Shown: positions 11,840-45,069 of the stretch, piece after piece
Position numbering within the stretch: the first letter of the stretch is position 1
Layout of the letters: every line of letters starts with the position of its first letter
From: an uncultured Muribaculaceae bacterium
GTDB taxonomy: Bacteria; Bacteroidota; Bacteroidia; Bacteroidales; UBA932
DNA length: 64,000 bases
Assembly: GCA_964642235.1 (NCBI GenBank)
Contig: CAZXOP010000001.1
Coordinates: 17,497 to 81,496 of the forward strand
Direction: 5' to 3'
Position numbers and translations under genes: made by a program
The notes under the pieces: generated by a model
The model's database searches: none
What the model saw: the letters and a program-made list of their open reading frames with translations, nothing else
Told to the model about the DNA's origin: nothing

Positions 11840-12949
11840 ATGAAAAAATTATTTTTATTTGTTGGGCTACTTGCAATAGTAGCTTGTAACGCTCCAAAAG
11901 GTTATGTTATCCAAGGTACTATTTCCGGAGATAGCACAGCTTTCAAAACCGGAAAGGTTTATCTCTCTAATTTTGATAAGGAAAACCCTATCAAAGATAC
12001 TACTGATGCTGTTGATGGAAAATTTACTTTTAAAGGTGAGGTTCTATCTCCTGAACAATATGGGTTAACATTTGAAGGTGTTGATGGTAGAATTGCTCTA
12101 TTTTTGGAAAATGCTAAATATAAAGTGGAGGTTAAAGATGGAGACTTCTCCAAAGCAGTTATTGTAGGTGGGGCTACCCAGACTCTCTATAACCAACAAA
12201 ATACAAAACGAGATGAGCTTTATAAAGTAAGCAATCTTGAGGAGGCTTTAGCTGAATATAGATTACCCGAAACCACAACTGAAAGAAGAGCTGAGATCGT
12301 TAAGCTATACAACGAAATGGATAGTGTAATGACTAAATTCCAAGATTCGCTAATCGCAGCTAATCCTCTTTCACATTATGCTTTACAGAATCTAAAATCA
12401 AAAGTTAATGATTTATCAATAGAAGAGGCTGAAACTATGTTAGCCCCTTTTAAAGCTGATGTTAAGTTTGCAGAGAATAAAGTGATAGCTTCTATTGAGA
12501 AGACCATTAATCTTGAGAAATCTCTTCAAGTTGGGATGCCGGCTATTGATTTCACGATGAAGGATCCTAAAGGAAATGATATTACCCTTTCTGAAATTTA
12601 TAAGAAGAATAAAGTTACCATGATAGATTTCTGGGCAGGATGGTGTGGACCATGCCGCCGCTTTAACCCTACATTGGTTAAAATCTATGCAGCATATCAT
12701 AAGAAAGGGTTTGAAATTCTTGGAGTTTCCCTCGATAAAGAGGCTGATTCATGGCATAATGCCATTAAGACTGATAAACTGACTTGGCCTCAAGTTTCAG
12801 ATCTTAACTATTGGGATACTCAAGTAGCAAAGAGCTATAATGTAAGGTATATACCTCAGAATATATTTGTTGACCAAAGTGGTAATATTATTGCTCGCAA
12901 ACTTGCTGAGGATCAGATCACTTCGTTTTTGGATGAACATTTGAAATAA
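11840..12949 (+). CDS. TlpA-like thiol:disulfide oxidoreductase lipoprotein (thioredoxin fold)
   Basis: 369 aa with a lipoprotein signal (LLAIVAC) and a C-terminal thioredoxin domain carrying the WAGWCGPC CxxC motif. The architecture is common in Bacteroidetes. Confidence 0.85.
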   Translation: MKKLFLFVGLLAIVACNAPKGYVIQGTISGDSTAFKTGKVYLSNFDKENPIKDTTDAVDGKFTFKGEVLSPEQYGLTFEGVDGRIALFLENAKYKVEVKDGDFSKAVIVGGATQTLYNQQNTKRDELYKVSNLEEALAEYRLPETTTERRAEIVKLYNEMDSVMTKFQDSLIAANPLSHYALQNLKSKVNDLSIEEAETMLAPFKADVKFAENKVIASIEKTINLEKSLQVGMPAIDFTMKDPKGNDITLSEIYKKNKVTMIDFWAGWCGPCRRFNPTLVKIYAAYHKKGFEILGVSLDKEADSWHNAIKTDKLTWPQVSDLNYWDTQVAKSYNVRYIPQNIFVDQSGNIIARKLAEDQITSFLDEHLK

Positions 12950-12952
12950 TAA

Positions 12953-13732
12953 ATGATTGGGATACTCGATTCCGGAGTTGGAGGGTTATCGGTATGGCGC
13001 GAATTATATCGTATTATGCCGAAACAGGAGTATATCTATGTCTCAGATGCAGCACATTGCCCATACGGAACCAAGCCTGTCGAATATATAGTTGATAGGG
13101 CAGAAAAGATAACCGAGTTTCTTATTGGTGAGGGGGCAGAGATCGTGGTGGTTGCATGTAATACGGCTACTGCTGCTGCAATAGGAGACCTTCGTTCCAA
13201 ATATCCTATCCCTTTCGTGGGTATCGAACCCGCAATAAAACCTGCCGCCACCACGTCCTCTTCAGGAGTGGTGGGGGTTTTGGCTACTGCCAATACATTA
13301 AAAGGGTCATTATATCATAATACTCTTGAAAAGTTTGCTTCTAATGTAAAAGTTATAGAACGGGTAGGAACCGGTTTGGTTGAACTTATAGAGCAGGGAA
13401 TTACCTCCGGAGAGGAGATTGACTCCCTGCTCTCTCTTTATATAGGCGATATGATTAATGCCCGAGCCGATACTATTGTGCTTGGGTGTACTCACTACCC
13501 TTTCATAGAGGAGTCCATTAGAAAAATTACCGGTCCCTCTGTTCAAATAATCAATCCCGCCCCGGCAGTTGCAGCCCAAACTAAAAGGATAGCAGATTCT
13601 CTACCTGAGAAGCACCTAAGTTCAGAAAAACTCTCTTTTTACTCCACAGGAGAGTTGGAGACTCTTAAATATCTCGCCAAAACCATAGAACCGAAACTAA
13701 CAAACAAAAATTTTTACAACCTATACAAATAA
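12953..13732 (+). CDS. murI: glutamate racemase
   Basis: ILDSGVGGLSV, VVACNTA and GCTHYP motifs, which contain the two catalytic cysteines. Confidence 0.93.
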   Translation: MIGILDSGVGGLSVWRELYRIMPKQEYIYVSDAAHCPYGTKPVEYIVDRAEKITEFLIGEGAEIVVVACNTATAAAIGDLRSKYPIPFVGIEPAIKPAATTSSSGVVGVLATANTLKGSLYHNTLEKFASNVKVIERVGTGLVELIEQGITSGEEIDSLLSLYIGDMINARADTIVLGCTHYPFIEESIRKITGPSVQIINPAPAVAAQTKRIADSLPEKHLSSEKLSFYSTGELETLKYLAKTIEPKLTNKNFYNLYK

Positions 13733-16131: not shown

Positions 16132-17592
16132 TTAGTTTACACCGGTACGTTTATCCCACCACATCTGTTTTCCCCAGAAGTCATCTTTAACATCTGCTTT
16201 AAACTTAGCAAGATTAACTCCATTGAGAGCACCTTCGTTTACAGGGTAAGGGTAACGGAAAGGAGGAGTATTATGTGCAGCATATTTTGCAGCACGACCC
16301 GGAGCGATATAATGGGTTGTAGGGATACCTGTCCTTCTGTAAAGAGACCATACCTCCATACCTTGTTTGAATAGTGCTATCCACTCTTGAGTATAGATTT
16401 TGGTTAAGGTATTATCGAAAGCTCCTGCCCCTGCTAAGTAAGCTGTTGCATCTGCTGCCGAAACACCATTCTCTTCAAGAGAGGCCTTTACCCCATTATT
16501 ATAAGCTACCACTGCTGTGGTACCACCTGTGTTATATCCCAATTTGGCTGCTTCTGCTATATGGAACCAAGTCTCAGCAGCTCTGAAATAAGGGGTGAAC
16601 CCTTTAGCATCGTTGCGGAATCTGGTACCAATACGTGAAAGTGTACCAATATCAGATACAAGGGCTTTAGCACCAATAATAAATCCTTGATATACACCTG
16701 CTTTATTAGGACGAGCATATACAGGGAGACGAGGGTCCCCAAGACTTGTAAGTAGATTAACTAATACATCAGAAACTCCATGGTCATCTCTTGTTCTCGA
16801 GTCGTTCATCCAAGGCTCATAATAAGGGTCAGAGCCGGGCCATTTAAAGAAAGCATTATCAGCATTACTGGTTATAATAGGGTACTTTGCAGGGTTTCCA
16901 AGGATCTCTTCCACAGTACTCTTAGCCAAAGCGGGAGATGCAACGGAAATTCTTATAGCCATTCTTAAACGGAGTGAGTTACAGAATTTTTTCCATTTGG
17001 TAATATTGGCATTAAATAGAATATCCCCTGTTCCAATATTATCTCCACCTTCATTAAGATCATCAGCAGCCTGTTTTAATAGAGCTAAAAGGGCAGGATA
17101 GATATCCTCTTGTTTATCATACTGAGGATATAGATAACCCTCTTCGAGTCTTGCAGCTTCAGAGTAAGGGCAGTCTCTCCATGTATCTGTAGCTATTTGC
17201 ATGAGAACAGCTTCCCATATCTTTGCCACGGATACTAAGTTTTTACCACCGCTCTCTTTACCTTGTCTCTGTATCTCTCTACAGTTATTGAGAGTTATAT
17301 AGATGTAATGCCATTTATTCTCCACAACAGTGTTACGGAATTTATATTTAGCCTCATCTATGTATTGAATCTTAGCAATTTGTCCACCATAAGTGCTTGG
17401 TTCGTTAAGGTCATTCCATGCATCGAAAAGGGAACTTGAAGTATAGCAAATAGTGTATGCTAAAATATTGGTCGCCGGACCGGTTTTAGAGCGGTCAGGG
17501 TCAGTGTTAATTTCTTGAAAATTCTTCGTACATCCTACTGTTAGTAATACAAGCAGGGTGAAGAGAGTAATTTTTATATATTTCTTTTTCAT
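16132..17592 (-). CDS. SusD/RagB-family outer-membrane lipoprotein
   Basis: 486 aa with a lipoprotein signal (LLTVGC). It lies immediately downstream of a SusC-like gene on the same strand (18-nt gap), and its length and composition are typical of SusD-like proteins. Confidence 0.8.
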   Translation of the reverse strand: MKKKYIKITLFTLLVLLTVGCTKNFQEINTDPDRSKTGPATNILAYTICYTSSSLFDAWNDLNEPSTYGGQIAKIQYIDEAKYKFRNTVVENKWHYIYITLNNCREIQRQGKESGGKNLVSVAKIWEAVLMQIATDTWRDCPYSEAARLEEGYLYPQYDKQEDIYPALLALLKQAADDLNEGGDNIGTGDILFNANITKWKKFCNSLRLRMAIRISVASPALAKSTVEEILGNPAKYPIITSNADNAFFKWPGSDPYYEPWMNDSRTRDDHGVSDVLVNLLTSLGDPRLPVYARPNKAGVYQGFIIGAKALVSDIGTLSRIGTRFRNDAKGFTPYFRAAETWFHIAEAAKLGYNTGGTTAVVAYNNGVKASLEENGVSAADATAYLAGAGAFDNTLTKIYTQEWIALFKQGMEVWSLYRRTGIPTTHYIAPGRAAKYAAHNTPPFRYPYPVNEGALNGVNLAKFKADVKDDFWGKQMWWDKRTGVN

Positions 17593-17610: not shown

Positions 17611-20600
17611 TTAGAATGTTAATCCCACTTTAAGACCCACACTGCGAGATGGCATATATGAGCCGGACTCCAAGCCTACCCCTGAGTTTCCACTGCTTGT
17701 TCCGGATTCAGGGTCGATCTTAGCATAGTTAGAGGGATGTAGCCATAATATAGCGACATTATTAGCTATTAAGGAGACATTAAATCCTTTAACAAAACCA
17801 TTTTTAGGGAGTTTTGAAGCGGGTAATTGATATGTCAAGTGAAGTTCTCTTAGTTTTAAGAAAGAACCATCTGCTACTGCAAATGACCTATCTGAATAGA
17901 CATAAGGGAATGCATCTCTTGCTGTTACTTTAATGTCATTAGGAGATCCGTCTTCTTTGACGAATTTAAGGTCTTTGAAAATATCAACACCATAAACTAT
18001 CTCTCTTTCACGAATATCCCCCTCAGCAGTCATCTTTAAGATACCTGTATATTGTCCCCACATAGATGTAACAGAGAAGAATTTACCACCATGTCTATAG
18101 TCAAACATAAATCCGAATGAGAAATCTTTATATCTCAATTCAGAGCTTAAACTTGCTAACCAGTTTGGTGTAACCTCTCCTAAATCTTTGGTTTCAGCTT
18201 TTGGAAATCCTGAAGCATCAACGATTATATTTCCTTTATCGTCAGTAGCATGACCATATCCATATAGAGTTCCCCAAGAATACTGTTTGGTTATCTTTCC
18301 ATTCTCATCTTTTATAGGGGCTTTGGCATATAGATAGGTTGACCATTGATTACCTATTTGATAATTGAGTAGTCTCTGTCCTGTCTTAGGGTCAGTATAA
18401 AGTTCATTTACAGTGCTATAGTCTTTTGACCAGTTGACAATTACATCCCATGTTACATCTCTAGTCTGAACTGCGGTACCCCTTAACTGTACTTCTATCC
18501 CTTTATTACTAAATTCACCGGCATTTACCATCATTGTGCTATATCCGGTAGGTCTTGCTACAGCCATAGACAAAATTTGGTCAGAGGTTACTTTTGAATA
18601 GAGAGAGAGGTCGAGTCCTATACGATTCTTTAATAGATGTGCCTCTAATCCTAACTCAGCGGTTACTACAGATTCAGGACGCAAACCTGCCGGAGGGAGT
18701 GTTGTCGGCATATAGAACTGCCCTTGACCAAGTATAGGAGTTGCTACAGCAGAGTAATATTTGTCAGTTTGATAAGCAGAAGTAGCAGAACCGATTTTTG
18801 CCCAACCTCCGCGAATCTTCAAGTACTCTAAAAATTCTCCTTTTAGACCTTCGAATGTAGCTGTAGGAATCCAGCTTAGAGAGACTCCGGGATAGAAGAA
18901 AGGATCTTTAATGGTAGAACTCCAGTCATTACGAACTGAGACATCTAAATAAACCATACTCTTAAATCCTATAGAAGCATTGGCATATAATGAATTAGAT
19001 CTAATATGAGAGTGACCGTAAGCTGTATAAGGGGCACCACTTGCGTTAGATACTGTATAAAGTTCAGGGACTATCAGTGCATTAGCACCCAATCCTAATG
19101 AACTAAACTGTGCATCACGGAAGTTGGCTCCAAGTACTGCCGATACATTAAACATCTCATCAGCGAAGCTCTTATTAATATATGCTATAGCATCGGCATT
19201 CATCTCAATATTCTTCATATTGTAATCATAAAATCCTCCGGAGGGTTGATCTGTGTTATATGCTATTCTTTGCAAGTTCTTTGAACCATAGTAGTCATAT
19301 CCGAGACGTGCTTCAAATTTTAACCAATCTGTAGCATTTAGCCAAAGAGAGGCTTTTCCGAAGAGACGATTCCTATCATAGGTGTTAGTGTTTTTATAGA
19401 CCGTATAATATGGGTTCTGATGATAATCAGGGTTCCAAGAGTAGGGTTTGCCTGTACTTTCATCAATTTTTTCCCAATTAGCTTTCTGGTCTTTCATGTC
19501 CACCTGACGTCCAAACCACTCTAACATAGACTGTAATGGGTTCCCTGCATTATAAGCAGTCATAGGGAGATTGTCACTATGAGTATGTGCATAGTTCATG
19601 GTAAGGTCGAAGGAGATAAGTTTGTTGATATCATAACGAGCGTTAATCTGTGCTGAATAACGTTTTTGATCAGTATTAGGAATAGCCCCTTTCTGATCCC
19701 TTACTCCAAGTGAAGCTCGTACATTAAATTTATCACTTTTCCCTAATACAGAGACATTATGATTCATAGAATAACCTAATTCTAAAAAGTCATTAATGTT
19801 ATTAGGTTGTGAAATCCAAGGGGTTTTCTGTCTGACACCCCCTACTATAGGGCTGTTTATTTGAGGAATTAATAGTCCTACATCCAATCTTGGTCCCCAA
19901 GATTCGTCAGCGTTACTATCTATACCACCCCAAGCATAGCAGTTTGCATCCACATACTGTTGGTATGTTCCTGTAAATCCACCGGCTTTAGCAACATTAT
20001 AGTCATACTCACTTCCTTGGTACCCTTGACCATATTTGTTCTGCATTTCAGGAATGTTAAACATCTGATCGACAGTGAAGCTACCATCATAAGAGATAGA
20101 GACTCCACCTCTGTTGTTTTTTCCTGATTTGGTTGTAATCAAGATAACTCCATTCCCTGCTCTCATACCATATAGAGCACCTGCTCCCCCTTTAAGTACT
20201 GAGATAGACTCAATATCATCAGGGTTTATATCCATAATACCTGAACCGTTATTAACTGATCCGTAAACGGTTTGGTCATTAGTGATAGGAATACCATCGA
20301 CTACGAATAGAGGTTCATTGTTTCCAAGAGAAGAGTTACCGCGGATTACAAAACGGGATCCTGCTCCGACCTGTCCCCCTGCAGCAGATACCTGAAGACC
20401 GGCTACTTTACCTGCGATGGCTCCTGCCATATTAAGGTGTCCTGCTTTTGTAAGCTGATCCCCCTTTACCTCTTGTATGGCATGCCCTAACGATTTTTTA
20501 TCGCGGGTAATACCGAGGGCTGTTACAACCACCTCTTCAAGGATGTTTTGTGAAGCCATAGAGGCGTTGATTATAGATCTGCCGTTTACTGCAACTTCCA

Positions 20601-20841
20601 GATCCTGATACCCTACAAAGGTGAATACAAGAGTGGCATCTTTAGCACAGTTGATAGCAAACTTTCCATTTGCATCAGCAACTTGACCGTTAGATGTCCC
20701 TTTTATCACGATGTAAGCACCTGGTAACGGTTGTCCATCTTGGGAATCCGTTACCGTCCCTGTTACTTGGATGTTCTGTCCCCAAGATAGGGTACAAAAC
20801 ATTAGCATCAAGGAAGAAAGAAAAAATTTAATTTTTTTCAT
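17611..20841 (-). CDS. SusC/RagA-family TonB-dependent outer-membrane transporter
   Basis: 1076 aa with a signal peptide, a carboxypeptidase-regulatory-like domain ([24 protein letters not shown]), a plug domain, and a beta-barrel ending in F. There is no N-terminal STN signalling extension. Confidence 0.93.
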   Translation of the reverse strand: MKKIKFFLSSLMLMFCTLSWGQNIQVTGTVTDSQDGQPLPGAYIVIKGTSNGQVADANGKFAINCAKDATLVFTFVGYQDLEVAVNGRSIINASMASQNILEEVVVTALGITRDKKSLGHAIQEVKGDQLTKAGHLNMAGAIAGKVAGLQVSAAGGQVGAGSRFVIRGNSSLGNNEPLFVVDGIPITNDQTVYGSVNNGSGIMDINPDDIESISVLKGGAGALYGMRAGNGVILITTKSGKNNRGGVSISYDGSFTVDQMFNIPEMQNKYGQGYQGSEYDYNVAKAGGFTGTYQQYVDANCYAWGGIDSNADESWGPRLDVGLLIPQINSPIVGGVRQKTPWISQPNNINDFLELGYSMNHNVSVLGKSDKFNVRASLGVRDQKGAIPNTDQKRYSAQINARYDINKLISFDLTMNYAHTHSDNLPMTAYNAGNPLQSMLEWFGRQVDMKDQKANWEKIDESTGKPYSWNPDYHQNPYYTVYKNTNTYDRNRLFGKASLWLNATDWLKFEARLGYDYYGSKNLQRIAYNTDQPSGGFYDYNMKNIEMNADAIAYINKSFADEMFNVSAVLGANFRDAQFSSLGLGANALIVPELYTVSNASGAPYTAYGHSHIRSNSLYANASIGFKSMVYLDVSVRNDWSSTIKDPFFYPGVSLSWIPTATFEGLKGEFLEYLKIRGGWAKIGSATSAYQTDKYYSAVATPILGQGQFYMPTTLPPAGLRPESVVTAELGLEAHLLKNRIGLDLSLYSKVTSDQILSMAVARPTGYSTMMVNAGEFSNKGIEVQLRGTAVQTRDVTWDVIVNWSKDYSTVNELYTDPKTGQRLLNYQIGNQWSTYLYAKAPIKDENGKITKQYSWGTLYGYGHATDDKGNIIVDASGFPKAETKDLGEVTPNWLASLSSELRYKDFSFGFMFDYRHGGKFFSVTSMWGQYTGILKMTAEGDIREREIVYGVDIFKDLKFVKEDGSPNDIKVTARDAFPYVYSDRSFAVADGSFLKLRELHLTYQLPASKLPKNGFVKGFNVSLIANNVAILWLHPSNYAKIDPESGTSSGNSGVGLESGSYMPSRSVGLKVGLTF

Positions 20842-21108: not shown

Positions 21109-21116
21109 CAAATATA
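21109..21116 (-). promoter_or_regulatory. candidate -7 promoter box (TATATTTG on minus strand) for the minus-strand susC/susD pair
   Basis: Plus-strand caaatata lies in the 448-bp divergent intergenic region and would give a leader of about 260 nt. Confidence 0.35.
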
Positions 21117-21212
21117 GTTTTTAATTCTTTAATGTCAAATTTTTTTTATCACCCTGTTTTATTTTGGATATAGCTTCTATAGCGTTTTGGTTTGGATTAT
21201 CAATATTTTGAC

Positions 21213-21289: not shown

Positions 21290-24200
21290 ATGAAAAGAAT
21301 CAAATTTATTTTCACGGCGTTACTGTTATTGTTTTCTTTAAATTCTTTCGCTCAGAATGTAACTATTAAAGGAAAAGTAACGGACGCAAGCAGTGGAGAG
21401 CCAATTCCATTTGCCTCTATCCAAATTAAAGGTACTATGACCGGCACTGCCACTCATGATCTTGGGGAGTATTCTATCTCCGCTCCAACTAACGGAGTCT
21501 TAGTTTTTAGCTCTATAGGGTATAAAAACTTAGAAATACCCATCAATGGACGTACTTCTATAAGCGCCTCATTGGAACCCGAAGCCCTTGCACTCGAAGA
21601 TGTTATAGTAGTTGCATACGGCTCTGTCACTAAAAAAGATTTTACCGGTTCTGTAGCCTCATTTGATGGTAAAAAACTCGAAAAACGTCCTTTGACTAAC
21701 GTTGCTAACGCTTTGGAGGGTGTCTCCACAGGTATTCAGTTTACTTCCGCTTCAGGTCAGCCAGGTTCTTCAGGCTCGATTCGTATTCGCGGTATCGGTT
21801 CAATTAATGCGTCAAGCGATCCATTATATATAGTGGATGGTGTTCCCTATTCAGATGGGATGTCAAACCTTAATTCCGATGACATTGAGTCTATTTCCGT
21901 TCTTAAAGATGCCTCCTCTTCTGCTCTTTATGGGAGCCGTGCAGCTAACGGAGTCGTGATTATAACCACTAAAAAAGGGCGTTCAGAGAAGATCCAGTTT
22001 GTTGCTAAAGTTAACTACGGAGTCTCTGTCAGGGGTATTCCTGAGTACGATAGAGTAAATGCTTATGATTATTACCCTCTTCTTTGGGAAGCTTATCGTA
22101 ACTCTGTACTCACTACTACTACTCCGGCTATCACCCTCGATGCAGCAAATTTGAAAGCTACAAATGATATAAAAGGGTTACTTGTTAATAACCCCTTTAA
22201 TGTAGCGGATAATGCGATTGTTGGTACAGACGGAAAACTAAATCCTGCTGCTAAACTCCTTTATACTGAGGATTTAGACTGGGCTAAAGCTATAGCAAGA
22301 GTAGGTCATAAACAAGACTATTCAGTCTCTGCAAGTGGTGCCACCAATAAAGCTGATTATTATTTTTCAATTGGCTACATGAAAGAACAAGGATATAGTA
22401 TCAAGTCTGATATGAATAGGGCTACTGCTCGTATTAATATGAACGTTCAGCCTACAAAATGGTTAAAGGCAGGTGTAAACCTCTCAGGAACCTCTTCAAA
22501 GTCTAGCATAACCAATGATGATTCTTCTACAGGTTATGTAAATCCTTTCTTCTTCTCAAGAGATATTGGTCCTATTTACCCTATTTATCAGCATAATGCA
22601 GATGGTAGTTATCTGTTGGATGAGCAGGGTCAAAAACTATATGAGTGGGATAAGAGGGGTGCTTCAGGTTCTCCCGGAAGACACGTAATAGCTGAGACAC
22701 TATGGAATGATAATATGAATAGAAGGAATGTTATCAATAGTAGAACTAATGCCGAAATTACATTTATAAAAGGATTGAAATTTAGCGTAAACTTAGGGTA
22801 TGACCTAAGAAATCAGCTTGACTCCAGATATGATAATACCAAAGTGGGAGATGGTGCTCCTGCCGGTCGTTCAAATGCCACTGTCTATTTTTATGAGACT
22901 ATCAACTTTAACCAGCTCCTCTCTTATCAGAATAGTATAGGTAATCATAATTTTAATCTTCTTGCAGGTCATGAGACTTATGATAGAAGTTATGAGTATG
23001 TTTATGGTATGAAACAAGGAATTATCGCTGAAGGAAATACCAAGCTTGTTAACTTTACCACTATCAACTCATTCACCGGGTATTCGGGCAACTATAGAAC
23101 AGAGGGTTATTTTGCAAGAGCTGACTATAATTATTATAACAAATATTATGTTTCTGCCTCTTTCAGAAGGGATGGTACATCTAAATTTGCCCCCCAATCT
23201 CGTTGGGGTAATTTCTGGTCTCTCGGAGGTTCTTGGAGATTGGATCAAGAGAATTTCCTAAAATCTTCACCGGCTATCGACTTGTTAAAACTACGTCTCT
23301 CTTATGGGCTTGTAGGTAATGACGGAACAGATTCGTGGTATCCTTGGCAGTCTGTTTATGATATTAACAGATATGGAAATGCCCCTGGATTCATTCAAAG
23401 TACTTCAGCCGGGAATGATAAACTACAGTGGGAGGTAAATAAGTCTTTCGACGTGGCAATAGATTATGGTTTCTTTAAAAATAGAATTACCGGCTCTATT
23501 GAGTTCTTCCATAGAATTTCAGACAACCTTCTCTTCTCTGTTCCACTTCCTGAGTCCTCCGGTGTGCTTGCACAATGGCAGAATGTGGGATGTATGTATA
23601 ACCAGGGTATCGAGTTCCAATTGGGTGCGGATATTATAAGGAGTAGAGACTTTGTATGGAATACTCTTCTAAACGCATCTCATGTGGAAAATAAAATTAC
23701 CAGACTTCCTGAAGGACAGCCTGAAATTATTTCCGGGACCAAAAAGCTATCAGTAGGTCATTCTATTTATGATTTCTGGTTATATGATTTTGCCGAAGTA
23801 AATCCTGAAACGGGTGATGCTATGTATTATAAGGATATTAAGGATGCAGAGGGCAATGTAACCACACAAAGGGGAGATAAGACCAATGACTATGCTTTGG
23901 CAGATGAATATTATGTTGGAACTTCCATTCCTATGGTATATGGGAGCTGGAGTAATACCTTCTCTTACAAAGGTCTTGAATTATCAGTTCTTCTAACTTA
24001 CCAACTTGGCGGTAAAATTTATGATAGTGCATATATAAGACTAATGACTCCAACTTATGGTGGTTCATTACATGCTGATGCACATAAGAGATGGAAAGTC
24101 AGTGGTGATGTTACTGATGTACCAAGGCTTGATAACTCAAGAAATGCTTACCAATATGCAGCTTCATCAAGATGGTTAACTGATGCTTCATATTTAGGGG

Positions 24201-26150: not shown

Positions 26151-29100
26151 ATGAAAAGAATCAGACTTTTTTTAACGGGTCTATTGCTTGTAATGACTGC
26201 AAACTTATTTGCACAGAATCTACAAGTTACAGGAACTGTTACTGATGCATCTACAGGAGACCCAATTCCCTTCGCTTCCGTTCAAGTAAAGGGAACCATG
26301 GTTGGTACTGCAACAGACGACAATGGTAAGTATTCCATTTCTGTCTCAGCTAATGGTGTTCTAATTTTCAGCTCAGTAGGTTACACAAATGTTGAAACCC
26401 AAGTGATGAATCGCACTGTCATCAATGCAGCTCTGCCTGTTGATGCTATTGCTTTGGAGGATGTTATCTTAGTTGCGTATGGAACAGCTAAGAAATCTTC
26501 TTTTACAGGGTCAGCAGTTTCTGTTTCCGGAGACAAAATTAAAAAGACACAAGTTTCTAACATCTCTAAAGCATTAGAGGGAGCTGTCCCTGGTCTTCAA
26601 ACTGCAAGTAGCAGTGGTACTCCCGGTTCAGGTGCGAGTATTATTATTCGTGGACTCGGTTCTATCTCTGCTTCTCAGTCTCCTCTTATAGTGGTTGACG
26701 GTGTTCCTTATGAAGGTTCATTGAACTCAATCCCTACTCAGGATATTGAGAACCTTACAGTATTAAAGGATGCTGCCGCTAACTCTATGTACGGAGCCAG
26801 AGGTTCTAACGGAGTTATCCTAATTCAGACAAGACAGGCTAAAACTGATGTTATTCAGGTCTCTTTTGAGGCTCGCGCCGGTGTTAACACAAGGGGAGTC
26901 CCTGCCTATAATATTATTACCAACCCTGCCGAATATTATGAGATGATGTATGAATCTATCAGAAATTCACTCACAGAAGGTGGTGGAATGTCCCTTATGC
27001 AGGCTAATCTTTTTACTGCTGATAAACTTATAAGCAATTATCTTAAATATAACATCTATAAAGGTGTTGCGGACAATGCTCTTATCGACCCTTATACAGG
27101 GAAGATTAATCCTAATGCTAAAACCTTAAAATGGACAGACAACTGGAGCACAGACCCTTTCCATAATGGTATTCGTCAGGAGTATAACCTTAATATACTC
27201 GGAGGTACTGAGAAGACTAAGGCTTATGCCTCTGTCTCATATCTTGGAGATGATGGTTATGTTTCTAACTCAGGTTTTAATAGAATAGCTGCCCGTGTTA
27301 AAATCGATCAGACTGTTAACAAATTCATTAAAGCAGGGGTAAACCTCGCATACTCTAATACAGAGCAACAGACATTTGGTTCTGCAAGTTCTAACTATTC
27401 TAATATCTTTATGTTCTCCCAGAGCATTGGTCCTATCTATCCTATCTATTTATATGATGCAGATGGACTTCCTCTTAAAGATGTAAATGGTAAAACTCGT
27501 TATGACTATGGTACTGAATATAATCGTCCTTATGCACAGGAGCAGAATCCACTCTCATCTTTAATAAATGGAGAGAGAAAGTATGTAAGGGATAATATCT
27601 CCTCAAGAGCTTATGTTGATTTTAATATAATGAAAGATCTTAAATTCACAGTCAACATGGCTTATGACGTCTTCTTGGATACCAATACCGAGTTTACCAC
27701 CCCTGTTGGAGGTGATGCAAAAGGTGTAGGTGGTAGAGGGTATAAGACTTCAAGTAGATATGCAGCTCTTAACGCTAACCAGCTCCTTAGTTACTCTCCT
27801 ACATTTGGCGACCATTCGATTAGTCTCCTTTTAGGACATGAGAACAAACGTGATAACTCCAACTACTTAATGGGACACATGACCAATTTCGTAGATATTT
27901 ATAACCCCGAATTTGCAAATGCTACTCTTTATCAGGATCTTACTTCAAACACCTCAGAGTATGCGTTGGAGGGTTATTTCGGAAGAGCGGAGTATTCTTA
28001 TAAAGACAGATATTATCTATCCGGTTCTTATCGTATGGATGCTTCGTCACGCTTTGCTCCGGATGTACGTTGGGGTAGTTTCTGGTCAGTGGGAGCTTCA
28101 TGGAGAGTTACAGGAGAGGATTTCTTAAAAGGCTCAAATATCATTAATAACTTAAAACTTAAAGCCAGTTATGGTACCCAAGGTAACGATAACATCGGTA
28201 TGTCCAAAGTTTATCTTGACCTATATACCATCTCAAGAGTTAACGGTAAAGCCGGTGTAAGTAAATCTTTCCGCGGAAACCCTGCTGTTACTTGGGAAAA
28301 GAGTACCAATATGAACGTCGGAATCGAAGCCGGTTTCTGGAACAGAGTTAATATAGCTGCTGACTTCTTTATTAAGAAGACCACAGATATGATCTATTAT
28401 CGTCCTCTTCCACCATCCGAAGGGAGTCCTTCTTCTAAGATAGTAAACGATATCGATATGAAGAATACCGGAGTTGAGTTTGAAATTTCAGTTGACGCTG
28501 TTAAGACAAGAGATATCAGATGGAATATCTCATTCAATGGTACCACATATAAGAACGAACTTACCAAACTTCCTTCCGATAAAGACCCTAAGGGGTATCA
28601 GGCAGGTTCTTATTGGAGAAAATTAGGCGGTTCACTTTATGATTATTATACATACCAGTGGGCAGGGGTTAACGAAGAGAATGGAAAACCTCAGTACAAG
28701 AAATATGTTAAAGATGCTGAAGGTAAAGAGACCGGAGAGATAGAACTTGTTAATAAGACCTCAGATGCCACTCTTAAGGAGGTAGGTAAATCCTCTATTC
28801 CTAAACTTTATGGAGGTATTACCACCACCCTTGATGCTTTTGGAGTTGATTTATCTATTTCAGGTGCATATCAGTATGGTGGGTATGTTTGGGATTCATT
28901 CTACTCTTCATTGATGAACCCAGGAGATGCCGGTAATAATATGCATACCGATATGTTCAACCGCTGGACAGTAAATAATAAAAAGACTGATGTTCCAAGA
29001 CTTCTCTATCAAGATAGGGATGCTAATGCAAGTTGTGACAAATGGTTAGTTACTGCTTCGTATTTCTCTTTAAGAAATGTTACCTTAGGATATACTATAC

Positions 29101-29307: not shown

Positions 29308-30804
29308 ATGAAAATAGTAAAATATATTTTATCGATACTAATAGGGATATCTATTCTATCATCTTGTACAAAAGATTATTTTGATACTAAGATAACGTCA
29401 TATCTCGATAGTAACACAGCGGCGAGAATTGCCGCCTCAGATCCTAAAGCACTTGATGCTTATCTGCTTGGTTCTTTCTCCTTTTTAGTTAAGTTTAGTG
29501 TTTATGGCACAGGTGGTCATGATGACTTCGCTCACATGTCAGTAATGCACTCAACAGATTTAATGGGACAGGATATTGCTCTTTCTGCAGCTCACTGGTT
29601 TAACGGGGATTATAAACATGATAATCATGAGTTTAACTATCGTAGGACAGGGGTTAACTGGCTTACATATTATACCACTATTGCTAAAGCAAACGAGATT
29701 ATAAGCTTTTTCCCTCAAGTTCCTGAACTTCCAGAGAGTAAAGGTGTTTTAGCTCATGGCTATGCACTAAGAGGTTTTGCATATTATTATCTTATCCAGC
29801 TTTATCAGCATACAACTGACGCATCAGGGAAACTTATTCTCAACAAACCTGGTATTCCTATGATTTATAACCCTGTTGATGGTCTTACAGAAGATGAGAT
29901 GAAGACAAGAAAGGGAAGGAATACTGTTAAGATGGTATTAGATCAGATAGAGTCTGACTTGACTAAAGCTGTGGAGTTATTTGAAGCAGGTTATACCCGT
30001 CCTTCAAAGAACTATATTGACAAGTATGTTGCCAATGGTCTTTTAGCACGTTATTACCTCCTTACTCAGCAGTGGGCAAAAGCTGCCGCTGCAGCTAAGA
30101 AAGCTTATGCAGGTTCTACATTAGTTACTAATCAAAATGCTGATTTCAATAACATTGAGGATAAGGAGTGGATGTGGGGTTATGATCATAATACTGAGTC
30201 TCAGACTACTTATGCCTCTTTCTTCTCTCATATCTCTAATAGAACAAATGGATATGCAGGTCTTGGATATTCAGCACGTCTAATTGATAAAGCTCTTTAT
30301 GATGCTATTCCCGATACAGATATCCGTAAAGCATGGTTTAACGGACCTGCAGGAAATCCTGCACAGGCTAGAACCGGAGCAAAACTCCCTTATGCTAACT
30401 TGAAATTTGGCTGGATAGATGGTTGGGTTATGGACTATATGTATATGAGAGCCCCTGAGATGTATCTTATCGAAGCTGAAGCTCTTGTAAGACAGGGTAA
30501 AAATGCTGAAGCAGCTACTGCCATGACTCCTTTAATGAAAGTTCGCCAGCCGGGCTGGGCACTTGCATCAGTAACTTTAGATGATGTTCTTCTCCAGAGA
30601 AGGATAGAGTTATGGGGAGAAGGGTTCTGTATGTTTGATCTTAAACGCCTTGGAAAAGGAATTGATAGAAATTATGCCGGATCAAATCACCTAGCTGGTT
30701 TTAAAATCGCAGTGGCTCCCATGGCTAAGACTTGGATTTACCAGATTCCTCGTCAGGAAATGCAGGAGAATAAGGAGTTAAAAGATACGGATCAAAATGA
30801 ATAA
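29308..30804 (+). CDS. SusD/RagB-family outer-membrane lipoprotein
   Basis: 498 aa with a lipoprotein signal (ILSSC) and the RRIELWGEGFCMFDLKR motif. Confidence 0.92.
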   Translation: MKIVKYILSILIGISILSSCTKDYFDTKITSYLDSNTAARIAASDPKALDAYLLGSFSFLVKFSVYGTGGHDDFAHMSVMHSTDLMGQDIALSAAHWFNGDYKHDNHEFNYRRTGVNWLTYYTTIAKANEIISFFPQVPELPESKGVLAHGYALRGFAYYYLIQLYQHTTDASGKLILNKPGIPMIYNPVDGLTEDEMKTRKGRNTVKMVLDQIESDLTKAVELFEAGYTRPSKNYIDKYVANGLLARYYLLTQQWAKAAAAAKKAYAGSTLVTNQNADFNNIEDKEWMWGYDHNTESQTTYASFFSHISNRTNGYAGLGYSARLIDKALYDAIPDTDIRKAWFNGPAGNPAQARTGAKLPYANLKFGWIDGWVMDYMYMRAPEMYLIEAEALVRQGKNAEAATAMTPLMKVRQPGWALASVTLDDVLLQRRIELWGEGFCMFDLKRLGKGIDRNYAGSNHLAGFKIAVAPMAKTWIYQIPRQEMQENKELKDTDQNE

Positions 30805-31669
30805 TTTTAAAAAAAAGATGGTTATGAAAAATATATCTAAAATTCTCTATTTAGGACTCATTTCGCTCTTTCTCTTCTCATCATGTGCCGAAAAGCCACT
30901 TGTTAAGGGTGAGGTCGAAAAGGGATTTTCCGGATCAGTTGCGAATATGCCTACATTATCCATTACAGGAGCTACCTTAGAGCCTGTTAAAGGTCAGATA
31001 GTTACTTGTACAGGTACTATTACCACCACAGGTGAGATTCGTGAAGTAGGTTTTGCTTATGCCAAAAAAGCCGATTTTTCAGATAAGAAAACTGCTACAG
31101 GGAAATTGACAGGGACTACTTTCACTGCTAATATTACTTTAGAGCCTCTAACTCAGTACTATATAAAAGCTTATGGTATTGTTAATGAAGGAGCCGCAGA
31201 AAGTGAAGGACAGAAGAGTGTAACTACTCCCGATCTTCCATTCTATGATAAAGTACTTGGTAACTTTAAAGGAAACATGAAGTCTGCTGCTTATGGAACT
31301 GCATACAATGGCTATACTATTTCTCTATTACCCTATAGTGCAGACCTTGTAAATAAAGTTATAGTAGCTCATACAGATCCTTATTATTTCGGTAAAGGAT
31401 ATAAATATCCTAAGAATAACTTTGTTATAGGGACTATTGATGCTACTAATAAGACTGTTACTGTGACTGCTGGAGCACAAATGACTCTTGGAACTTTCGG
31501 AGTAGTAGCTGTTAATTCAGACAAATGGGCAGGAGCAACTAGAATTTCAAACTGGGTTTTAACCTTTATCGATAATGTTACTTTTAAGGCTAATGCTTGG
31601 GGTACTTACGATTTAGACTCCAATGAATGGGATGATCAATATGAACTTGTAACTAATTTTAAGAAATAA
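30797..31669 (+). CDS. PUL-associated surface lipoprotein of unknown function
   Basis: 290 aa overlapping the susD stop by 8 nt. It has a lipoprotein signal (LFLFSSC; possible later starts at 30818 or 30824) and T/G-rich beta-strand sequence consistent with Ig-like domains. I recognise no family. Confidence 0.6.
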   Translation: MNNFKKKMVMKNISKILYLGLISLFLFSSCAEKPLVKGEVEKGFSGSVANMPTLSITGATLEPVKGQIVTCTGTITTTGEIREVGFAYAKKADFSDKKTATGKLTGTTFTANITLEPLTQYYIKAYGIVNEGAAESEGQKSVTTPDLPFYDKVLGNFKGNMKSAAYGTAYNGYTISLLPYSADLVNKVIVAHTDPYYFGKGYKYPKNNFVIGTIDATNKTVTVTAGAQMTLGTFGVVAVNSDKWAGATRISNWVLTFIDNVTFKANAWGTYDLDSNEWDDQYELVTNFKK

Positions 31670-31693: not shown

Positions 31694-31729
31694 GTGGGTG
31701 GTCAGTGTAAATTGACCACCCACTTTTTT
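31694..31729. terminator. bidirectional rho-independent terminator between the PUL lipoprotein gene and the convergent hypothetical gene
   Basis: 11-bp stem gtgggtggtca / tgaccacccac with an 8-nt loop followed by a T6 run. Confidence 0.7.
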
Positions 31730-32465
31730 ATAATGAATATAAAATTAAACTAAATAGAGTCTGTTTGATTTCATATTTATTGAAGCCGTTCCAGCTTGCG
31801 TCTCGCATCTTAGGTGTCTGCTGTTGTATGAGAGCCCCCTTAATAATTACCCTCCCTCTCTCTCTAAGTGAATACTCTTTTTTTCTCCCATTTTTATATA
31901 TAAGAGTAAATTCCGAATAGGTCCCTATCACCTCTCTTTCAGGGAGCATAAGAGAGAGATTCTCCTCCAATCCTAAAAGAGTGGGAGTACAGATAACGCT
32001 TTCACTTCCAACCCATCCCCTTACAGTAATATTTTTACTCTTATTGACTGCGGTAACTTCACAGGCAACAGCCCCCCCTAAAAAATCAAAAGGAGAATAA
32101 TAAAAAGTCTCTTTGGTTCTTATTAATACAGCATTTGGTAAAAATTGCTCTACCTTAATATCCCAGTCCAATATTCTCCCTGTTACCCCATCTCCGGTAA
32201 CCTCTACTTTCTCCGCATTATTTATCGGAAGTGCCCTCTTTTTAGTATTATCAATAATATAGAGTGAAGGGGGATTCTTATCTATAGTTAGAGTTGTTAA
32301 CTTAATAACATAAGGAAGGAACACCTCTTTTCCACTTTTTGTTTTAGCTAAATAGACCCCTTCATCTAATGGAGAAGAGAGTGTTAATTTCCTGACAGGA
32401 AGGAAAAAGAAGATTATTAGAGAAGTGACTGCAATGAGCACTATAGTTAGTTTTCTGGTTTTCAT
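31728..32465 (-). CDS. hypothetical membrane-anchored protein
   Basis: The ORF is trimmed to the ATG at 32465 (MKTRKLTIVLIAVTSLIIFFF gives a single N-terminal TM helix), because the ORF-track extension overlaps the rpoC terminator hairpin. I recognise no family. Confidence 0.55.
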   Translation of the reverse strand: MKTRKLTIVLIAVTSLIIFFFLPVRKLTLSSPLDEGVYLAKTKSGKEVFLPYVIKLTTLTIDKNPPSLYIIDNTKKRALPINNAEKVEVTGDGVTGRILDWDIKVEQFLPNAVLIRTKETFYYSPFDFLGGAVACEVTAVNKSKNITVRGWVGSESVICTPTLLGLEENLSLMLPEREVIGTYSEFTLIYKNGRKKEYSLRERGRVIIKGALIQQQTPKMRDASWNGFNKYEIKQTLFSLILYSL

Positions 32466-32489
32466 GATTTTATAAATTATGTTAAAACA

Positions 32490-32521
32490 AACACCCCCCA
32501 AAAGTTATTTTGAGGGGTGTT
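32490..32521 (-). terminator. hairpin terminator downstream of rpoC
   Basis: Stem aacacccc / ggggtgtt, followed on the minus strand by T-rich tgtttt. Confidence 0.5.
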
Positions 32522-43716: not shown

Positions 43717-43790
43717 TGGCAGGGGCAGAGCGATTCGAACGCCCATCAACGGTTTTGGAGACCGCTATTCTACCCTTGAACTATGCCCCT
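43717..43790 (-). tRNA. tRNA-Trp (anticodon CCA)
   Basis: The minus strand reads AGGGGCATAGTTCAAGGGTAGAATAGCGGTCTCCAAAACCGTTGATGGGCGTTCGAATCGCTCTGCCCCTGCCA. It folds as a cloverleaf with a 7-bp acceptor stem, anticodon loop CTCCAAA, a GTTCGAATC T-loop and an encoded CCA. It sits in the conserved position between tuf and secE. Confidence 0.95.
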
Positions 43791-43860: not shown

Positions 43861-44530
43861 TTACTCAAGTAACTTAGTTACCTGTCCTGACCCAACTGTT
43901 CTACCACCTTCACGGATAGCGAAACGAAGTCCTTCGTTGATAGCTACGGGATAGATAAGGTTTACTGTAATAGAAACGTTATCACCAGGCATAACCATTT
44001 CAACTCCTGCAGGAAGTTCGATCTCCCCTGTAATATCGAGGGTACGGATAAAGAACTGAGGACGATATTTGTTATGGAAAGGAGTATGACGACCACCTTC
44101 ATCTTTCTTCAATACGTAGATAGAAGCTTGGAATGCGTGGTGAGGGGTAATGGTGTTAGGGTGAGCTATAACCTGACCTCTCTTAATCTCTTTCTTGTCA
44201 ATACCGCGAAGAAGAAGACCTACGTTATCACCAGCTTCACCTCTGTCAAGAATCTTACGGAACATCTCAACTCCTGTAACAACTGATTTTTTAGGCTCTT
44301 CACCAAGTCCAACGATCTGAACCTCATCACCGGTTTTAACAACTCCTGTCTCAATACGACCTGTAGCAACTGTACCACGACCTGTAATAGAGAAGATATC
44401 TTCAACAGGCATAAGGAAAGGTTTTTCGTTGTCACGTTTTGGAATAGGAATGTAAGTGTCAACAGCTTCCATAAGCTCCATAATTTTTTCTGTCCACTTA
44501 GGGTCTCCGTTAAGAGCACCAAGAGCAGAA
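43861..44530 (-). pseudogene. tuf: 5'-truncated elongation factor Tu (C-terminal ~223 codons, domains II-III only)
   Basis: The translation [33 protein letters not shown]...[15 protein letters not shown] is unmistakably EF-Tu, but the whole GTPase domain is missing. Identity to tuf stops at 44530, where the duplicated susC sequence begins. Confidence 0.9.
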
Positions 44531-44698
44531 ATCAGCAACTTGACCGTTAGATGTCCCTTTTATCACGATGTAAGCACCTGGTAACGGTTGTCCATCTTGG
44601 GAATCCGTTACCGTCCCTGTTACTTGGATGTTCTGTCCCCAAGATAGGGTACAAAACATTAGCATCAAGGAAGAAAGAAAAAATTTAATTTTTTTCAT
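44531..44698 (-). pseudogene. 5' fragment (56 codons) of the SusC-like gene, duplicate of 20674..20841
   Basis: It encodes [56 protein letters not shown], identical to the N-terminus of the 17611..20841 product. It then runs out of frame into tuf sequence and stops at 44510 (chimeric 62-aa ORF). Confidence 0.9.
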
Positions 44699-44965
44699 CT
44701 AATGATAATTTTTGGTTAATAAATTAGGTTAATAAAATAAGTAAAATTGGTTTGGATAGTTAGTTCTAAGTAATTCTAATGTAAAATAGTACAATGGACT
44801 ATTTCCTATAAGGAAGCAGAGAAATGCCTTACAAGAAAGAAATAAGCCGAAGTCAATAATAGACCAGAGATCGATTATAAGAATAAGTTGTATTAGGTTT
44901 CATAATAGCTAAATAATTAATTCCGTTAATTAGTCTTAGCATCATGTTTAGGTGCTTTGGCTACG

Positions 44966-44973
44966 CAAATATA
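44966..44973 (-). promoter_or_regulatory. duplicate of the candidate minus-strand susC -7 box, now facing the truncated susC/tuf junction
   Basis: caaatata at 21109..21116 plus 23,857. Confidence 0.35.
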
Positions 44974-45069
44974 GTTTTTAATTCTTTAATGTCAAATTTT
45001 TTTTATCACCCTGTTTTATTTTGGATATAGCTTCTATAGCGTTTTGGTTTGGATTATCAATATTTTGAC

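Follow-up and report, generated by a model that had tools for sequence, protein, structure and literature searches.

A probable population-polymorphic tandem duplication that joins tuf to a susC-like gene and doubles rpoB and rpoC in an uncultured wastewater Bacteroidota bacterium

In the 64,000-nucleotide stretch of DNA analysed here (the window, C1:17497-81496), the 3' part of a tuf gene is joined at 44530|44531 to the 5' end of a gene for a SusC-like protein. This joint is probably that of a real and recent chromosomal tandem duplication of 23,857 bp, which is polymorphic in the population and carried by part of the wastewater population of a small-genome member of the Bacteroidota, possibly as a low-order amplification of the same segment. 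It would then belong to the spontaneous tandem duplications (gene duplication-amplification), in the repeat-independent class with a homology-free junction. The contig belongs to a bin of 2.12 Mb in 218 contigs that stems from a fragmented, low-coverage metagenome assembly and represents a 95.5%-complete genome.

The two copies of the unit are arranged head-to-tail. Copy 1 spans 20674-44530, as defined by 23,857 bp at 100% identity and by gene content, while copy 2, delimited by sequence comparison, starts at 44531, fills the remainder of the window up to 64000 and continues beyond it to the window-equivalent position 68387 (C1 85883). Comparison over the full contig of 20674-44530 with 44531-68387 gave 0 mismatches in the 23,857-bp unit; within the window alone, the sequence from 20674 onward and that from 44531 onward show 0 mismatches over 19,470 bases. 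The identity breaks off sharply at both outer edges, with flanks that are unrelated from the first base outside the unit. The layout of the contig is a left flank with the intact susC-like gene, the unit, the joint, the unit again and the rest of an intact tuf gene. The contig runs 766 bases past the end of the identity and these bases complete a tuf gene of 395 codons. A tandem duplication had been proposed in the preliminary description, which also named beforehand the lack of an intact tuf where copy 2 ends (near 68387) as an observation that would speak against it. Copy 2 indeed stops exactly 23,857 bases after its start, and the intact 395-aa tuf is found at the expected place. Exactly one novel joint is present, from unit end to unit start, and the parental sequence is restored at both outer edges.

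When the whole bin was compared, the 23.9-kb repeat proved to be its sole large perfect repeat. Contig C27 of the same bin carries a repeat of approximately 365 bp in three places (12631-12993, 16296-16663 and 19719-20086), the copies being 98.6-99.7% identical and spaced 3.4-3.7 kb apart. The end of the duplicated contig, upstream of the intact tuf (L001 6425-6620, corresponding to C1 86424-86619), contains tRNA-like sequence with a summed depth of up to 400x contributed by many organisms, and the contig probably stops there in a graph tangle in conserved tRNA genes.

The unit (20674-44530) contains the 5' end of the susC-like gene with a divergent intergenic region, two SusC/SusD pairs, two ORFs without a Pfam match, rpoC, rpoB, rplL, rplJ, rplA, rplK, nusG, secE, a tRNA-Trp gene and the 3' part of tuf. 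The two ORFs lacking a Pfam match lie between the second susD and rpoC, at 30797-31669 (plus strand, 290 aa) and 31728-32501 (minus strand, 257 aa). The tRNA-Trp gene (CCA; 43717-43790, minus strand) is located between the truncated tuf and secE; it is the gene reached first when the minus strand is followed downstream from the joint. In relatives of the organism, rpoB is single-copy in every genome that gave a match, two apparent doubles being complementary fragments at contig ends.

The parent gene at the left edge encodes an intact SusC-like TonB-dependent transporter of 1076 aa (17611-20841, minus strand) with matches to CarboxypepD_reg and Plug, and the left breakpoint falls between 20673 and 20674, after codon 56 of this gene. 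Matches of this protein in its own genus and family are 33-37% identical, and the best matches, at 44-46%, are from Sphingobacterium and Olivibacter. A search for orthologues among relatives and in a species collection returned only proteins of 33-46% identity and no close orthologue. This pattern hints that the gene was acquired from outside the lineage.

Set against the intact 395-aa gene, the truncated tuf (43861-44530, minus strand) on the other side of the joint retains residues 174-395 and a single base of codon 173, and lacks its own start codon. Its profile matches are restricted to GTP_EFTU_D2 (PF03144) and GTP_EFTU_D3 (PF03143), which correspond to domains 2 and 3 of EF-Tu. The intact protein reads MAKETFKRDKPH...PVIQG|SALGALNG... 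across the break. The preliminary description placed the cut at the codon boundary before SALGALNG; its position at 44530/44531 is correct, but the cut lies within the Gly173 codon (GG|T), of which one base is kept. Similarly, the claim that the start codon and the whole GTPase domain had been lost holds for the start and for motifs G1-G4, but not for the G5 motif SAL (174-176), which is retained together with approximately the last 30 residues of domain I. Translation of this EF-Tu 174-395 fragment would be possible in principle at most.

The truncated susC-like gene (44531-44698, minus strand) consists of the first 56 codons, which according to sequence comparison and a partial domain match specify the signal peptide and the first 31 residues of the CarboxypepD_reg-like domain. 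Translation of the ORF across the joint (44510-44698, minus strand) yields the chimeric product of 62 aa that had been described earlier, in which the 56 susC codons are followed by six out-of-frame tuf codons (FCSWCS) and a stop. Its residues 1-56 are identical to the first 56 of the 1076-aa SusC-like protein, and the match to CarboxypepD_reg is partial. As read from the sequence, the product would be a signal peptide with a 34-residue fragment and six further residues, and it would contain no complete domain.

At the nucleotide level, the susC edge reads ...ccatttgc|ATCAGCAAC and the tuf edge ...GAGCAGAA|ccttggata, whereas the joint reads ...GAGCAGAA|ATCAGCAAC. The joint at 44530|44531 is blunt, with 0 nt common to both edges (ttgc|ATCA versus agaa|CCTT), in agreement with the earlier observation that the 4 nt left of the two breakpoints (ttgc and agaa) share no homology. 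No common k-mer of at least 7 nt was found within 40 nt on either side of the edges in either orientation, and a local repeat search revealed no direct or inverted repeat and no att-like common core at either edge. Furthermore, the edge sequences have no other occurrence in the bin.

The evidence for the joint is provided by k-mer contigs (Logan) of public sequencing runs, which were built from reads independently of the deposited assembly. When public runs were searched for the joint region, the flanking words were found in many wastewater, bioreactor and sludge runs, while the share of matching words exceeded 0.88, the value expected without the joint words, only in X1 (1.00) and X2 (0.92). 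A 90-base query centred on the joint matched three runs only, X1, X2 and X25, which belong to one study; X25 contains the intact tuf side only. In X1, a wastewater run, a contig of 849 nt with a depth of 6.06 spans the joint without a difference; in X2, likewise from wastewater, the joint is spanned by a 60-nt unitig with a depth of 2.7. The same nodes in X2 branch into the intact tuf (depth 6.2) and are entered from the intact susC-like gene (depth 5.7), the first contig of the unit having a depth of 9.46. The preliminary description had regarded absence of the joint from raw reads as refuting its interpretation, and the joint is present in the read-derived contigs of both X1 and X2.

The joint is found in two of the 12 DNA runs that hold the organism, in X2 as a minor branch. 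The ten others (X3, X4, X5, X6, X7, X8, X9, X10, X11 and X25), drawn from six or more studies, display only the intact continuations at either edge, as in the single-copy parental form, and in X5 and X6 contigs pass uninterrupted through 20673/20674. In samples of the other studies, the joint is thus either absent or below detection. No X1 contig covers the intact susC edge (20626-20673). Absence of an intact tuf from X1 and X2 was considered, given zero depth over the tuf G domain, and was rejected: X2 displays the intact edge, and the depth data omit contigs resembling human or highly conserved genes, so that zero depth over this domain is uninformative in both runs.

One of the joint-bearing runs may be the sample from which the bin was assembled. 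At 17265, 23492-23493, 28557, 28593-28594, 36530 and 36553, the contigs of X1 differ from the window, mostly by G>A and with two adjacent doublets, while those of X2 match it at these sites. These differences imply either that the joint occurs on two slightly different backgrounds or that X1 contains systematic errors, and also that the deposited consensus does not derive from X1 alone.

The depth of the unit relative to the left flank was also considered. Binned contig depth over the complete unit was set against that over 10 kb of the left flank; these depths are low (3-9x), censored and flat within contigs, and the bins are not independent. The ratio of unit to left flank is 1.53 in X1 and 1.54 in X2, both of which have a joint contig. 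Among runs without a joint contig, it is 0.95 in X6 and 1.44 in X5 (window 20706-44530). X5 may therefore carry the duplication with joint words that fall below the contig threshold. In X2, the excess over the unit (approximately 2.8) is close to the depth of the joint (2.7), both figures being low, censored contig depths taken against the left flank only. If two copies are assumed, the graph of X2 fits a duplication carried by roughly 45% of the genomes.

The deposited pair of copies has to be read in the light of how such contigs are made. A loop-resolving assembler of the SPAdes type that is given the edges L->U, U->R and U->J->U, where L and R are the flanks, U the unit and J the joint, outputs L-U-J-U-R and walks edge U twice; this output requires real joint k-mers. 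The two deposited copies are probably one assembly-graph edge traversed in this way, and accordingly the 100% identity and the count of exactly two copies do not rank as independent evidence. The same graph would result from a two-copy array, a higher amplification or a circle, and letter-perfect copies are the expectation for any single edge walked twice. A real joint in another topology, be it at least three copies in fewer cells or a 23.9-kb circle beside a single-copy chromosome, would thus also fit, and the X2 values (joint depth 2.7, unit excess approximately 2.8) agree with any mix in which the sum of (copies - 1) is approximately 0.45 per genome. Such a topology is nevertheless unlikely. 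No replication or partition gene was detected among the unit proteins scanned, and a circle without an origin would dilute out and could not reach approximately 45% of the genome depth, while a higher-order amplification would be a further step of the same process rather than a different explanation. Still less probable is a technical artefact, in which a chimeric library molecule, carry-over between samples or an assembler error would have created the joint and the organism would have one copy. A library chimera would likewise give a blunt joint without homology, the joint is confined to two runs of one study, and the bin is fragmented and of low coverage. However, the identical joint occurs with multi-read depth in independent k-mer assemblies of two different samples, the bin contains no other large perfect duplication, and the contig depth appears raised approximately 1.5-fold over the entire 23.9 kb in X1 and X2 but not in X6 (X5 being at 1.44), which a chimeric molecule cannot produce.

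If the joint is real, the manner of its formation can be considered from its edges. A mobile element or a site-specific recombinase (a composite transposon, an integrative element or recombination at att sites) is highly improbable as its source. The two unit ORFs at 30797-31669 and 31728-32501 have no Pfam match, and annotation alone leaves room for such a function in them. Against this, the two breakpoints have neither terminal inverted or direct repeats nor a common core, each of them falls within the coding region of a housekeeping or transport gene, and the edge sequences lack a second copy elsewhere in the genome. The unit proteins scanned are all SusC/SusD, RNA polymerase, NusG, SecE or EF-Tu, and no recombinase-, transposase- or integrase-type domain was found among them. 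The preliminary description likewise saw no mobile-element signature at the edges and favoured non-homologous or microhomology joining over a mobile element; the blunt joint, the lack of repeats and the failure to find an element gene among the unit proteins scanned support such joining in its homology-free form. Two other routes were rejected on the breakpoint sequences, namely a repeat-mediated (RecA-dependent) duplication, as there is no direct repeat at the breakpoints, and a microhomology-mediated duplication, as 0 nt are common to them.

For the tandem duplication, the proposed origin is a single illegitimate, homology-free joining of tuf codon 173 to susC codon 57, which probably took place in the course of replication and involved sister chromosomes. 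Candidate routes are a switch of template at a stalled fork, an exchange of the topoisomerase type and ligase-A-dependent end joining. Neither Ku (PF02735) nor an ATP-dependent ligase (PF01068) gave a match in the 95.5%-complete genome, in which control profiles did match, although the bin is incomplete; Ku/LigD end joining is therefore unlikely. As is general for tandem duplications, both cut genes are present intact at the outer edges, the susC-like gene on the left and tuf on the right, and the joint sets the susC promoter region with 56 codons, out of frame, before the 3' part of tuf. The 62-aa ORF and the start-less tuf fragment would be passive by-products. The array is expected to be unstable and would be lost by homologous recombination between the copies unless its dosage is selected.

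The joint may also alter the transcriptional context of one copy of the unit. A candidate promoter of the intact and the truncated susC-like gene, of the Bacteroidetes type (TTTG, 19 nt, TATATTTG), was recognised by consensus match at 44966-44995 (minus strand), with its copy at 21109-21138. The region also fits TTGACA-16-TATATT, which is its best sigma-70-like match. The candidate promoter lies within the unit and is therefore duplicated, and its position 268 nt upstream of the ATG implies a long 5' leader. No terminator-like site was found between it and secE, so transcripts would cross the 62-aa ORF and the truncated tuf into the tRNA-Trp-secE-nusG-rplKAJL-rpoBC genes of copy 1. In this arrangement, one copy of these genes would now be positioned downstream of the susC promoter instead of tuf, and the dosage of the same genes and of the two SusC/SusD pairs would be raised. 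In the RNA runs X14 and X17, tuf transcripts continue into the intact tuf, and none were found over the truncated susC-like gene.

It is conceivable, though doubtful, that the duplication is kept at an intermediate frequency (about 35-50%) by selection on dosage, acting either on the SusC/SusD pairs or on secE-nusG-rplKAJL-rpoBC, and that the joint in addition rewires one RNA polymerase and ribosomal-protein copy to a nutrient-regulated susC promoter. If true, this would be a natural environmental counterpart of laboratory adaptation by gene amplification, in genes that are usually held strictly single-copy.

Few bacterial mutations are as frequent as tandem duplications with a single chimeric joint, which are usually transient. 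Spontaneous RecA-independent duplications in Salmonella, E. coli and Pseudomonas fluorescens SBW25 resemble the present one in being head-to-tail, tens of kilobases in length and bounded by one joint with 0-1 nt of homology, and also in that both parent genes remain intact, the population is heterogeneous and the depth of the unit appears raised. Those systems are selected laboratory cultures, however, whereas the organism studied here is an uncultured wastewater member of the Bacteroidota. For SBW25, large duplications with a junction microhomology of 0-1 bp and without flanking repeats have been described (bioRxiv 10.64898/2026.05.22.727201). Repeat-mediated duplications, as between rrn operons, IS elements or REP sequences, share the architecture of a tandem array, but their unit is bounded by the recombining sites, while the edges here are without any repeat and the defining substrate is absent. 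With loop over-traversal or concatemer artefacts of short-read metagenome assemblies, the present case shares letter-perfect copies in a fragmented bin; it differs from them in that the joint also occurs in a second sample and the unit depth appears raised. Finally, fusion genes born at tandem-duplication joints likewise combine a promoter and 5' coding part with the 3' part of another gene without loss of a parent, but the fusion described here is out of frame and ends after six codons.

Taken together, the duplication reveals no new mechanism and is, as an event, ordinary and scientifically of little weight; its one point of note is that a duplication polymorphic in nature doubles rpoB, rpoC and other markers in an uncultured bacterium. 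The presence of eight 'single-copy marker' genes, rpoB and rpoC among them, in two identical copies inflates contamination estimates of the bin and could mislead marker-based estimates of abundance. Independent k-mer contigs offer a means of checking a perfect duplication found in a metagenome bin, and in the present case the joint withstands this check and turns out to be polymorphic. If the frequency of approximately 45% persists over time, the organism would offer a rare case from the field of a dosage polymorphism extending to the RNA polymerase genes.
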